A stretch of DNA of 64,000 nucleotides. It comes from Eledone cirrhosa (lineage: Eukaryota). The notes under the pieces were generated by a model that saw only the letters and a program-made list of their open reading frames with translations, was not told where the DNA came from and made no database searches. Within the stretch, counting starts at the first letter, position 1; every line of letters starts with the position of its first letter. The stretch spans positions 115,258,001 through 115,322,000 of the forward strand of contig OZ024744.1 of assembly GCA_964016885.1 (NCBI GenBank), given 5' to 3'. Both the position numbers and the translations under genes were made by a program. Shown in pieces: positions 36,579-58,906 of this stretch.

Positions 36579-37006
36579 ATAGTCACGCGATATAACGGTC
36601 GTCGAGTAATCTTTGAAGTGTAGTGACTGCTGGAAAGCTGCCATTACTCATACTTCTCGCCTCCTTTACCACCTCTTCTACGGCTTCGATATAAATACCC
36701 CCTCCGCCTCCGTGGTATTTTCTTCGGGGTTATAAGAGGCTTAGCTCTGTTTCTCGACCGTTATATCGCGTGACTATCTCCCCCTCCGCCTTTTGGGATT
36801 CTTTCTCACGTCGTGTAGACGCGTTCTTGAAGCTATAAAATGAGGTATCCTCTTGATAAGTCGGCAGACCTCGCAAAGGCTCTATATCTTTATGATGTAC
36901 TGTTTTTGTTTATGCCACGAAACTACGTAGTCGAGGAATCTAGGAGCAGTTTAGGTATGATACATTTTATTACTAATTATATCTAAATGTTCCTTCTCTC
37001 TTCATA
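36579..37006 (+). mobile_element. ~430-bp non-coding element inside (TA)n, with a 23-bp inverted repeat and a hammerhead ribozyme (Penelope pLTR/retrozyme-like)
   Basis: Flanked by TA runs 36438-36580 and 37006-37250; CpG-rich. Perfect IR atagtcacgcgatataacggtcg (36579-36601) / cgaccgttatatcgcgtgactat (36755-36777). Confidence 0.7.
36848..36937 (+). ncRNA. Type I minimal hammerhead ribozyme, U3-A8 core variant
   Basis: Stem I tcctc/gagga; core TTGATAA (36853-59); stem II gt(c)ggca/tgccac; GAAA (36919-22); palindromic stem III ctacgtag; GUC triplet with predicted cut after 36932. Confidence 0.8.
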
Positions 37007-37249
37007 ATATATATATATATATGTATATATATATACACACATATATATATATATATATATATATATATATATATATATATATACATATATATATACATAT
37101 ATATATACATACATATATATATATATAGATATATAGATATATATACATATATATATATACATATATATATACATATATATATATACATATGTATATATAT
37201 ATATACATATATATATATGTATATATATATATACATATGTATATATATA

Positions 37250-38166
37250 TGAGAGTAAATCTAGCTAAGACAAAAGTGTTGATGAGTAGAAAAGAGGACA
37301 AAACCCTGATTCCGTCAGGGAAATGGCCATGTTCGATATGCAGAAAAGGAACTGGCATAAATTCTATAAAATGCACACAATGTAGGTCCTGGGTACACAA
37401 GAGATGTAGCGGGATAGCAGGCAAACTAACAGGTAGGGAGAAATATGTATGCAGTAGATGTACAGGGAAATTAGACAGTAGAAGTCGCACTGATAGACAC
37501 ATTTTTCAAATGCGAGAGGGCGCTATAGAAGTGGTGGATAGCTTCCGGTACCTAGGAGATCAGATTAGCATGGGAGGAGGGTGTTCCGAGGCCATAGTAT
37601 CTAGAATAAGGACGGGTTGGAAGAAGTTTAGGGAGCTGCTTCCTCTGTTGACGAAGAAGGGTTTCTCCCTGCGTACGAAAGGCCGGTTGTATGATGCCTG
37701 TGTGAGGAGCGCGATGCTGCATGGTAGTGAGACATGGGCAGCTACCGCAGAAGATATGCGACGGCTGGAGAGAAATGAGGCAAGCATGCTCCGTTGGATG
37801 TGCAGTGTAAATGTGCGTGAACGACCCAGCATAAATGTGTTGAGAGAGAAACTGTGTCTGAGAGGGATAGAATGTAGTGTACGGGAGAGGAGACTGAGGT
37901 GGTATGGACATGTGATGCGCATGGAGGATGACCGATGGGTGAAGAAGTGCCAGGAAATGCCAGTTGAAGGAAGACGTAGTAGAGGTAGACCACGAAAAAC
38001 ATGGGCGGAGGTGGTGAGAACAGACCTCAGATCATTGAAGCTCACGGTGGAGATGACGAGGGACCGTGACGAGTGGAGAGATGCTGTGCTGAATAAGACC
38101 CGTCCCACCCTTGCAAGCAGGGAAAGGCGGACGTAAAATGATGATGATGATGATGATGATGATGAT
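37250..38166 (+). mobile_element. 5'-truncated RTE-clade LINE (second subfamily), reading frame still open
   Basis: [10 protein letters not shown]...C4HC3 finger...VDSFRYLG...RLRWYGHVMRM...RGRPRKTW; homologous to the C-terminus of the 39827 ORF. The stop is followed directly by a (GAT)n tail; inserted in a TA/CA microsatellite. Confidence 0.93.
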
Positions 38167-38406
38167 ACATACATATATATATATATACATACACACACAC
38201 ATATATATATATACACACACATATATATATATATATATATACACACACACATATATATATATATATATACACACACACACATATATATATATATATACAC
38301 ACACACACACACACACACACACATATATATATATATATATATATATATATACACACACACACATATATATACACACACACACACACACACACACACATAT
38401 ATATAT
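38167..38406. repeat. Compound (TA)n/(CA)n microsatellite
   Basis: Alternating TA and CA runs. Confidence 0.95.
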
Positions 38407-38471
38407 CTACTTTGTTTTCATATTTGTTTTGCAAGATTTTTAATGTAAAAACATGTGGTATTTGAATATAT

Positions 38472-38676
38472 ATACTTATAGAGGATCATGCACCAATAAA
38501 AACACATGCACCTGTTGGGTTTCATCATGAGTGACAAAAGAGCTTTAACAATTAATAACTAAAGAACCATCTGGTCTGGTCATAAAAATCACCAACTGGA
38601 AATTATTATAATAAATTGAAGTAAAATCCAACAGGTGTGTATGTGCTTTTATTGGCAGCATGGCCTGCCAAAGTAT
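38472..38676. mobile_element. ~205-bp fold-back (MITE-like) element with ~50-bp imperfect terminal inverted repeats
   Basis: catgcaccaataaaaacacatgcacctgttggg versus tccaacaggtgtgtatgtgcttttattggcagcatg; TA-flanked. Confidence 0.65.
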
Positions 38677-38685
38677 AACAATATA

Positions 38686-39030
38686 TCATCATCATCATCA
38701 TCATCATCATTTCATTTTATGTCCGCTTTTTCCCTGCTTGCAAGGGTGGGACGAGAACTGATTTTGGCTTGATTTCTACAGTTGGATGCCCTTCCTAACA
38801 CCAACCTCATTTACAGTGAGTGCTGGGTGCTTTTTTACCGTGGCACCTACACGACCACTTTGCAGTGGAATGATAGGGACCCCAGTCCCTATCATTTCAT
38901 TTGTACAGCTGAGTAAACTGGAGCAATGTGAAATAAAGTGTCTTGTTCAAGGAAACAACACATCACCCGGTCTGAGAATTGAACTCACAACCTTTCAATT
39001 GCAAGGCCAATGCTCTAACCACTAAGCCAT
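38686..39030 (-). mobile_element. Composite SINE: tRNA head + CORE-like domain + RTE-derived 3' tail
   Basis: On the minus strand: tggcttagtggttagagc (A box), gagttcaattc (B box), tccttgaacaagacacttt (CORE-like), then cgtcccacccttgcaagcagggaaa + (GAT)n, matching the tail of the LINE at 38101-38166. Confidence 0.8.
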
Positions 39031-56717: not shown

Positions 56718-56719
56718 TA

Positions 56720-56917
56720 AAGGGCGGTGGATTGGCAGTATCGGTAGAGGGTTTGACACCATGCTTTGCAGCAAAGAGTTACGGCCCTTTATGATCTAAG
56801 GTCAAATCCCACTGAGGTTAACTTTGCCTTTCATCCTTACGGGGTCGATAAAATAAAGTACCAGTAATACATTGGGTAATTGCTGGCCTTGTGCCTAACG
56901 TAGAAACAATTATTATT
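56720..56917 (+). mobile_element. tRNA/Nin-type SINE
   Basis: Same family as the SINE at 7155-7345. Confidence 0.88.
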
Positions 56918-57345
56918 GTTGTTCTTTTTGTAAATTTCAAACACTTAGATGTTAAATTAGGGAGCAGTCAACAAGTTGACAAAGGTTCTTTACTGCATCC
57001 TCACCTGTGTCTTACATAGACATGACTTTCCATAAATTCCTTGCTCTACCAAGAAGTGCTGTCTTCTGTATGACTTGTAACCTTGCATCAATTCCGATTC
57101 TATTTATAGTCCTAAAAACTGTCCAATATTCAACCCAGCGCTGCAATCACCCCTGGAATCACTAAAACCTTCTTCATCTCCAACAACTTTTAAACCTCCC
57201 CCTTCAGTGGCTCAATAATTTGGGTCTCTTTTTTCTTCTTGTTCACAATTAAATTGTCTGGCCTTCTTGCCTCAATCATTTTATCTCGTTGAATGGTGAA
57301 GTCACACAAAAGCTTAAATTTGTCATTCTCTTCCACCCATTCTAA
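56908..57345 (-). mobile_element. 3' fragment of a second R4/Dong-like element (restriction-like endonuclease domain)
   Basis: Minus translation VEENDKFKLLCDFTIQRDKMIEARRPDNLIVNKKKK...QKTALLGRARNLWKV, typical of the R4/Dong RPD..D region and C-terminus. Confidence 0.8.
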
Positions 57346-57349
57346 TACC

Positions 57350-58563
57350 ATTTACTGTCCCGGTGCAACTGCTACATATAAAGCCTACATTCTTAGTTAA
57401 GCTTCCTGAGATCCCACTACATCTATTGTGTACCTATAGTTTGCATTTAGGGCAGAGGATGGAATTTCTAACTACACCTTTCCTACATACTGAGCAAGAC
57501 CATGGGTACACAAGAGATGTAGTGGTATCTCAGGAAGTTTAGCTAAGAACATAGGTTTTACATGTAGCTGTTGCACTGGAGCAGTAAGCAGCAAATGGCC
57601 ACAGAAAGCAAGCACTATCAAACTCTGAGAGGGCTCTGTAGAAACAGTAGACAGCTTTTGCTAACTAGGTGACCAAATTAGCAGTAGAGGTGGGTGTTCG
57701 GAAAGTACAGTCACAAGGGTAAGAACGGGATGGAAGAAGTTCAGGGAGCTACTACCTCTGTTAGCTACAAAAGGCTTTTCCCTCAAAATAAAAGGCAGAT
57801 TGTATGATGCGTGCATACGAACAGCAATGTTACATGGTAATGAGACCTGGGCGTGTGTAGAAGATTTGCGTAGATTAGAAAGAAATGAAGCCTGCATGCT
57901 CCGATGGATGTGTAATAGTAATATACGCGAACGGCAAAGCATAAATGAACTGAAAGAGAAACTAGGCATAAGAGGAATCAGATGCAGTGTGCAGGAGAGG
58001 AAATTGCATTGGTATGGTCATGTGATGCATATGAAGTATGACAGCTGCATAAAAAGGTGCAAGGAACTCAAAGTTCATGAAAGCTATGAAAGAGGAGGAC
58101 CTAGGAAAGCTTAGGATGAGGTTGATAAAAGCTGACCTTGCACAATTGCACCTCTCAAAGGTGATGACACTGGATAGAGATCTTTGTCATTGCGCAGTAA
58201 TACAGAAAACCTAACTTCTCTTGTACATGGGTTGAAGCATACATCTTGTATGCACCACCTCCACCTCTCATATCAGAACACCACACCCATGACCTAACAC
58301 CTCAACCATCACCTATGTCCCTAGATCTACCTCCCCAATCCCCCCACACACCCCATCCAAGTCCCTAGCCCACACTGTAAAGTGGTTATGTAGGTGTCAT
58401 GACAAAAAGCACCTAGTACTCACTGTCAATGTGGCTGGTGTTAGGAAAGGCATCCAGCTGTAGAAACCAAGCCCAAAACAGTTCTGTATGAGTAAGACAT
58501 GGTCACCTGACCAGACTTGTCTAACCAGTGCTAGTATGGAAAATGGACATTAAACAGTGATGA
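57350..58563 (+). mobile_element. Decayed 5'-truncated RTE LINE with an inverted 5' segment (57350-57502)
   Basis: 57503-58215 is closely similar to the C-terminus of the 39827 ORF; 3'UTR ends ggacattaaacagtgatgat; 57350-57502 is the zinc-finger region in opposite orientation. Confidence 0.9.
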
Positions 58564-58580
58564 TATATATATATATATAT

Positions 58581-58906
58581 CTTTTACCTTGTGTCATGAG
58601 ATTGACGTTAACTTATGTTCCCATCCCTTTCTGTTTTCATTTATCTGACCGGTAGTAGCATACTATAAACTTTAGCCACGTCACTCCAGGGCGACCGGCT
58701 GAGAGTGAAGGAACAGAATAGCGGTCACCCTCGGGTACTCGATTTTCAGCCCCATGGATTTTATCTATTACATTCACGTATTATATTTCGAATACCTGAT
58801 GATGTCACCGGATTCATACGGAACCCGGTCATTGAAATGATCATAGTATAATAAACCTTTCAAGGATTTACACAAATCCAGCCTCCTGTCATTTCATTAT
58901 TATATT
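58581..58906 (+). mobile_element. ~325-bp non-coding element inside (TA)n carrying a hammerhead ribozyme (Penelope pLTR/retrozyme-like)
   Basis: TA runs at 58563-58580 and 58907-58939; internal hairpin agggcgaccg/cggtcaccct; HHR followed by AATAAA. Confidence 0.65.
58792..58849 (+). ncRNA. Type I minimal hammerhead ribozyme
   Basis: Stem I atac/gtat; CTGATGA (58796-802); stem II accgg..ttc/gaa..ccggt with an imperfect base; GAAA (58834-37); palindromic stem III tgatca; AUA triplet with predicted cut after 58845. Confidence 0.72.

Follow-up and report, generated by a model that had tools for sequence, protein, structure and literature searches.

We consider it very probable that two short elements of the Eledone cirrhosa genome, E1 and E2, are truncated copies of two families, F1 and F2, which carry hammerhead ribozymes and no open reading frame (ORF) and which were likely copied into (TA)n microsatellites in trans by the reverse transcriptase (RT) and GIY-YIG endonuclease (EN) of a Penelope-like element (PLE). 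Both elements lie in a stretch of 64,000 nucleotides (contig OZ024744.1 of assembly GCA_964016885.1, positions 115,258,001 to 115,322,000 of the forward strand), hereafter called the window. A first-pass annotation of the window had described two ORF-less elements at 36579-37006 and 58581-58906 with (TA)n runs on both sides, and their coordinates, ORF-less state and flanks were confirmed. Their lack of significant sequence similarity was also borne out: the best blastn match between E1 and E2 had an E value of 0.056, and the full F1 and F2 units share no sequence. The same annotation had grouped them into one candidate family of 0.3-0.45 kb elements. This grouping and this size had to be abandoned, as F1 and F2 are two separate families, of which E1 and E2 are 5'-truncated pieces: E1 covers the final 406 bp of the 592-bp F1 tandem unit, and E2 derives from a unit of about 2.9 kb. 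Their parts are, in window positions:

36439-36581, no strand: (TA)n target run, left flank of E1 (Tandem Repeats Finder)
36580-36601, minus strand: short second arm of E1, private to this copy, inverse of 36755-36776 (F1 unit positions 341-363), from copy comparison
36601-37006, plus strand: E1, a 5'-truncated F1 copy, unit positions 187-592, 3' end at site J
36848-36937, plus strand: HHR1, predicted type I hammerhead of E1, core 36853-36859 (U3-A8), GAAA 36919-36922
37007-37250, no strand: (TA)n target run, right flank of E1
58563-58581, no strand: (TA)n run, left flank of E2
58581-58900, plus strand: E2, the 5'-truncated last ~320 bp of a 2,905-bp ORF-less F2 unit, end at site J
58689-58730, plus strand: GC-rich hairpin of E2, with compensatory changes across F2 subfamilies
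58792-58849, plus strand: HHR2, predicted type I hammerhead of E2, core 58796-58802 (canonical), GAAA 58834-58837
58901-58939, no strand: (TA)n target run, right flank of E2

Neither element has an upstream unit, and both are probably dead-end copies.

F1 and F2 are abundant and ORF-less

First-look searches of the 3.0-Gb genome returned 1,855 candidates for E1 and 1,596 for E2, and the top 40 scored of each were 97-100% identical. Exact matches to the ribozyme motifs numbered 7,860 for F1 and 5,618 for the F2 lineage, with 0 for the reversed control; these counts refer to ribozymes and not to insertions, the first 100 F1 matches making up 52 clusters. The F1 unit, which is found in tandem, measures 592 bp and its longest ATG-initiated ORF has 48 amino acids (aa). 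The F2 unit is 2,905 bp long, contains internal repeats and has a longest such ORF of 86 aa. A tblastn search of both units with the PLE proteins of this genome gave no match. A second F2 subfamily, F2c, is 70-90% identical to the first (F2a) in the alignable parts and consists of ORF-less units of 1,964-2,211 bp, two same-strand ribozymes being present at that spacing in 4/30 loci. In a position-ordered sample, F2 copies displayed a median difference of 8% around the ribozyme. F2 is a lineage with subfamilies, whose units span 2.0-2.9 kb.

The loci retrieved by the F2 5' body (30/30) and by the F1 tail (30/30) mapped solely onto ORF-less units; both sets are the best-scoring matches, and rare ORF-bearing versions could remain. 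The earlier proposal held up in that E1 and E2 represent multi-copy, non-autonomous retroelements of Penelope/retrozyme type, which bear hammerheads, target (TA)n and occur as multimers.

Related sequences were seen at several loci. L197 and L355 hold distant F2 relatives with another helix III; L197 reaches 74% over the tail, and in L355 the ribozyme and tail run into a long body. L034:1-1000, L093:800-1300 and L210:700-1250 belong to another short (TA)n-embedded family of a few hundred bp, which has a U3-A8 hammerhead with a long palindromic helix III and a GUC site, tandem and inverted copies, and variable stems.

Insertions end at two fixed 3' sites

F1 and F2 insertions exhibit the same set of traits: (TA)n targets, 5' truncation, a partial-tandem pseudo-long terminal repeat (pLTR), head-to-head inversion and an optional tail at one end. 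We counted 33 same-strand steps of 587-607 bp, 15 head-to-head steps and 0 tail-to-tail ones in the first 100 F1 matches, and F1 tandems reach 5 units on one arm. The 3' ends fall at two fixed sites, J, located 55-75 nt past the predicted ribozyme cut site, and T, which follows J by ~170 nt in F1 and by 145 nt in F2. In position-ordered samples, all 21 F1 terminal 3' ends were at J (12) or T (9) and all 21 ran into (TA)n, while 27/30 F2 terminal 3' ends were at J (13) or T (14) and 24/30 ran into (TA)n. A (TA)n flank is general at 3' ends (98/102 in F1) and was found at 19/28 truncated 5' ends.

Locus L091 reads, in order, (TA)n, inverted truncated copy, partial copy, full unit, tail and (TA)n. 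The same layout is known from PLEs (PMC8557442; here and below, papers are cited from excerpts of their text), and that paper also reports a preference for (TA)n in Naiad, Neptune and Hydra PLEs. The architecture that E1 and E2 had been noted to share is the generic 3' end of PLEs and occurs equally in the autonomous Hydra- and Neptune-type families of this genome. At one place (L249-L254, G000:C1:19.618-19.625 Mb) an entire two-armed F1 insertion is locally duplicated, 2,554 bp apart.

Two-armed insertions nearly always combine one J end with one T end

For two-armed insertions, the 3' ends of both arms were scored in head-to-head pairs drawn from the first 100 listed matches of F1, F2 and F3, the last being a Hydra-type PLE of this genome; one F1 local duplicate was dropped. 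A J arm was paired with a T arm in 14/14 F1 pairs, 18/22 F2 pairs and 19/19 scored F3 pairs (1/20 was incomplete). Overall, 51/55 pairs were J+T and none was T+T (P about 1e-11 at even odds), the ends of the two arms being 100-170 nt apart. In a larger F1 sample (65 loci, ascertained in mixed ways and overlapping the first), two outward 3' ends were present at 37 loci, which comprised 34 J+T pairs and 3 pairs of J with another position. Among these 3 are E1, whose second arm has its 3' end at an internal site (unit position 363), and L243, with a comparable end at unit position 353, which suggests a minor third 3' site.

The short second arm of E1 had been read as an upstream hairpin or inverted repeat belonging to the architecture of the element. 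This does not hold, as the repeat (36580-36601 versus 36755-36776) is specific to this copy: the other 40 full matches start only at query base 20-30. Its interpretation as the terminal inverted repeat (TIR) of a miniature inverted-repeat transposable element (MITE) was rejected on the same ground. The counterpart in E2 is maintained, the hairpin at 58689-58730 being kept across the family. In 15 F2 copies, 92.7% of the cells of this hairpin, which lies upstream of the ribozyme, stay paired, both sides are changed in 3/15 pairs, and the covariation score of the whole structure was reached by 2/500 shuffles, a control that ignores the relatedness of the copies.

The relative extent of the two arms was also informative. 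Neither arm lies inside the other in 15/34 F1 pairs, 5 of which remain so even when a later gain of a whole unit is allowed. A copy made by fold-back would sit inside the first arm, so these 15 pairs do not fit fold-back. Together with the J+T rule, the non-nested arms suggest that priming took place twice, independently. Within one insertion, rare variants are common to tandem units (27 in 19,043 bp) and to inverted units (32 in 15,793 bp), at 1.4-2.0 per kb, whereas close pairs from different insertions share only 10 in 649,594 bp (0.015 per kb), about 100-fold fewer. This indicates that the units of one insertion derive from one template. The J and T sequences are AU-rich. A configuration in which they face each other across one RNA helix was rejected as a general explanation: folding predicted it in young F1 (z -3.3), while older F1, F2a (z -0.96), F2c, F3 and the Neptune-type family gave no such prediction. 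The tail is already described as optional and located at one end in PLEs (PMC3846280, PMC8557442), and our literature searches gave, among the matches listed, no paper on F1/F2 or on a strict J/T rule. The rule is a modest mechanistic addition to a kind of element that is already known.

The ribozymes are of the PLE type

A type I hammerhead descriptor (CUGANGA or UUGANAA core, stems I and II, GAAA, UH) matched exactly twice on both strands of the window, once in each element and each time on the plus strand, compared to 1 match in total over 20 local shuffles of 36001-64000. HHR1 has a stem/loop II of ~59 nt, a 10-nt palindromic helix III and a GUC site; its predicted cut, after C36932, is 75 nt from the E1 3' end. 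In HHR2, stem II starts with a U.U and holds a C.C mismatch, helix III is an 8-nt palindrome and the site is UA; the predicted cut, after A58845, is 55 nt from the E2 3' end. The two ribozymes had been presented as minimal type I hammerheads placed 55-70 nt from the 3' end: type and strand are correct, but HHR1 is not minimal, with its U3-A8 core and long stem/loop II, and its cut is farther from the end. Intermolecular pairing of the palindromes was calculated at -12.9 kcal/mol for HHR1 and -7.2 kcal/mol for HHR2. No Rfam hammerhead model matched either ribozyme, at the gathering score or at E<=10, and minimum free energy (MFE) folds of the single sequences gave no signal (z -0.38 and -0.31).

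The PLE ribozymes described in PMC4209133 have a dimer-type palindromic helix III, a long helix II, a short helix I and a U3-A8 variant, and are weakly active in vitro. Judged by sequence, the E1 and E2 hammerheads are of this PLE-type type I, with a palindromic helix III and U3-A8 allowed, placed near the 3' end. The ribozymes of F2, F3 and locus L080 form one subtype, in which stems I and II differ by fully compensatory changes.

Autonomous PLEs of the genome

PLEs are abundant in this genome, with 10,595 first-look candidates in a GIY-YIG search and 59,842 in a Hydra-type search. Neptune-type elements have uninterrupted ORFs of 938 and 1,096 aa with RVT_1 and GIY-YIG domains and a CX4CxxC linker; Poseidon-type (L103) and Hydra-type families were also sampled, all clade labels resting on motifs from PMC8557442 and not on a tree. 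Several autonomous elements bear their own palindromic ribozymes, one with U3-A8, and their 3' untranslated regions (UTRs) measure 0.35-1.4 kb. F3 (L347, L341, L350, L215, L206, L216) is young, with a period of ~4.1 kb, a 1.2-kb 3' UTR, a tail of ~100 nt and a ribozyme motif that matches thousands of times; frameshifts interrupt the copies seen. An abundant Neptune-type family (L104:3900-3940, L099) has a ribozyme with GCAA for GAAA, apparently degenerate yet still amplified.

No direct autonomous parent of F1 or F2 was found in the GIY-YIG, Hydra or F3 loci, nor by walking upstream in F2a and F2c, and an F1 ribozyme next to a PLE ORF in L086 was rejected as a parent link because it is a nested insertion. 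Median nearest-neighbour distances were 0.005 for F1, 0.005 for F3, 0.014 for the Hydra-type family of L166, 0.027 for F2 and 0.037-0.039 for Neptune-type elements, in samples that were differently chosen, and age matching on these distances did not pick out any single driver. The shared ribozyme subtype offers a lead towards a Hydra-type driver for F2, which is a guess at this stage.

Two proposed priming events and their alternatives

We propose that a read-through RNA, either a multimer or a circle, spanning an uncut ribozyme would be bound by a PLE protein and that both strands of the (TA)n target would be nicked, after which one target strand would prime cDNA at T and the other at J. AU microhomology may aid priming at both sites: given the AU-rich sequence at J and T and the self-complementarity of (TA)n, annealing could involve either target strand. 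The two cDNAs would extend toward the RNA 5' end, followed by head-to-head joining or by loss of one arm, and repeated copying of one unit would regenerate the tandem (pLTR) needed by the daughter. Cleavage by the ribozyme is probably slow, taking place either in a dimer held by the palindromic helix III or with assistance from a protein. In vitro, a PLE protein that is predicted to dimerize cuts and extends both target strands, its RT starts at two internal sites, which set the extent of the tail, and ribozyme cleavage is dispensable (PMC11167929).

A broader proposal can be made, whose chances we judge to be even: PLE integration may be an obligate two-primer reaction, in which one ribonucleoprotein, probably containing a protein dimer, would use T on one strand and J on the other of a target, from an RNA that is circular or longer than one unit. 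F1 would then be a 592-nt protein-free RNA with all cis signals, and F2 a long-lived lineage of PLEs resembling short interspersed nuclear elements (SINEs), maintained through several ORF-less subfamilies. If true, the two-primer reaction would jointly explain inverted arms, the one-sided tail and pLTR regeneration.

Several observations weigh against copying in trans by two primings on one template. The 22 F2 pairs include 3 J+J and 1 unclear case. Nested arms, seen in 19/34 F1 pairs, are equally compatible with fold-back. Gene conversion could likewise yield the variants shared within insertions, and a nearest-neighbour test on 218-bp segments was weak, the own insertion being closest for only 15/42 units. 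Nested insertions aside, F1 and F2 showed no blastn similarity beyond the ribozyme to 75 PLE-bearing and 5 F3 loci, a sample that is small relative to the first-look candidates. In Chlamys, by contrast, the 3' end of a non-autonomous element is usually similar to that of its partner (PMC8557442).

Three other explanations were weighed. F1 may possibly be a classical non-LTR retrozyme, although we find this doubtful: self-cleavage would be efficient, the 592-nt monomer would be circularised and the circle would template rolling-circle reverse transcription. This differs from copying of a read-through RNA by a PLE only in making cleavage and the circle obligatory, and it would accommodate the tandems of up to 5 F1 units per arm as well as the private variants common to the units of an insertion. 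As a circle, moreover, the F1 unit is predicted to fold at -167 kcal/mol versus -136 +/- 6 for 30 doublet shuffles, and a helix III of 3 bp is possible in a monomer and one of 10 bp in a dimer. However, the F1 ribozyme is PLE-type, with U3-A8 and a palindromic helix III, unlike the canonical coral retrozyme type (PMC7229834); uncut RNA is the main substrate of the PLE tested in vitro (PMC11167929); Xenopus dimers lacked cleavage in 8/9 cases (bioRxiv 10.64898/2026.07.22.740005); and F2 has an equal anatomy despite a unit spacing of 2-2.9 kb.

Alternatively, both arms could come from a single cDNA that folds back and primes itself (or be made on an antisense template), with J/T set when an endonuclease resolves the intermediate. 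Self-priming has been proposed for rotifer Penelopes (PMC3846280) and the tail has been ascribed to EN-mediated resolution (PMC8557442), and the nested F1 pairs fit it, but the 15 non-nested pairs, 5 of them robustly so, are impossible for a copy of the first arm, and both termini have been mapped to RT start sites (PMC11167929); we regard fold-back as improbable. The first-pass annotation had entertained solo pLTRs. That E1 and E2 are no more than 3' remnants of this sort, from autonomous PLEs with an unsampled ORF, appears highly improbable. Most PLE copies are 5'-truncated, and fragments of this size would fit the autonomous 3' UTRs measured here, but the 60/60 best-scoring loci, 30 per family, lead into the same ORF-less bodies, and complete ribozyme-to-ribozyme units without ORFs exist, including in F2c.

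Surroundings of E1 and E2 in the window

The ribozymes had also been placed antisense to a host gene. The sole host-like ORFs nearby (59448-60432, minus strand) have weak tetratricopeptide repeat (TPR) matches below the cut-off and stop short of E2 by 540 bp and of E1 by 22 kb; no host intron around either element is shown, so the antisense relation is unsupported. This TPR-like stretch occupies two frames, with a stop and a frame change near 59985-59992, which would correspond to a pseudogene, an assembly error or an unseen splice. An uninterrupted 1,167-aa ORF with endonuclease- and RT-like motifs at 39827-43330 (minus strand) resembles, by eye, a long interspersed nuclear element (LINE) of the RTE type, fragments of relatives of which are found at 37129-38136 and 57665-58114. 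Long minisatellites take up about two thirds of the window, among them a 26-kb array at 8154-34609 made of 481 copies of 55-bp units with a 95% match.

Comparison with known systems

Elements of this kind are already known as non-autonomous PLEs or 'non-LTR retrozymes' (PMC8557442; bioRxiv 10.64898/2026.07.22.740005). The closest description is that of the non-autonomous PLEs of Chlamys, such as MRC1 (PMC8557442), which like F1 and F2 have no ORF, pLTRs, head-to-tail multicopy insertions, 5' truncation, inverted 5' copies, a tail at one end and microsatellite targets. F1 and F2 differ from them by their hammerheads, their (TA)n target, the lack of detected 3' similarity to a sampled autonomous family and a tail of ~170 nt (F1) or 145 nt (F2) compared to 30-40 nt. 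The F1 and F2 ribozyme motifs were not found in one supplement file of that paper. From the Hydra-type EN+ F3 they are distinguished by encoding nothing and by having no alignable sequence in common with it.

Animal non-LTR retrozymes resemble F1 in their tandem ORF-less units and type I hammerhead (PMC7229834; bioRxiv 10.64898/2026.07.22.740005). Retrozymes are defined by tandem units and circular RNA (PMC7229834), and F1 fits the part of this definition that can be read from sequence. A preprint argues that animal retrozymes derive from PLEs and are non-autonomous; its units measure 51-972 bp and come from 35 genomes, most of them vertebrate, and it proposes that PLEs mobilise them (bioRxiv 10.64898/2026.07.22.740005). 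The 592-bp F1 unit is within this range, while F2 units of 1,964-2,905 bp exceed both the range and the size of less than ~1 kb expected of a retrozyme unit. The excerpts of these two papers describe neither tails nor inverted arms and sample no cephalopod. An octopus repeat annotation lists 31 active Penelope-like and 893 unclassified SINE families, ribozymes being unmentioned in its excerpt (PMC13282606); F1 and F2 could be among such automated families, and repeat pipelines would probably label them unknown or SINE. The two families together account for more than 13,000 ribozyme motifs in this genome, and PLEs thereby appear to sustain SINE-like passengers in great numbers.

F1 and F2 provide a natural data set on how PLEs build inverted arms, tails and pLTRs, and a biochemical counterpart to set beside them is PAc (Poseidon of Anolis, PMC11167929). 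Here again, two sites downstream of the ribozyme, which are RT starts in PAc, define the tail, and the target is AT-rich. In PAc, 30-40 nt separate the two sites, and the excerpt reports neither a difference between strands nor homology to the target, whereas J and T are 100-170 nt apart, AU-rich and used once each per insertion. With the one-J-one-T rule and the non-nested arms, a point that earlier papers made qualitatively becomes a sharp prediction for this existing in vitro system, for which the 592-nt ORF-less F1 unit would be a compact template.

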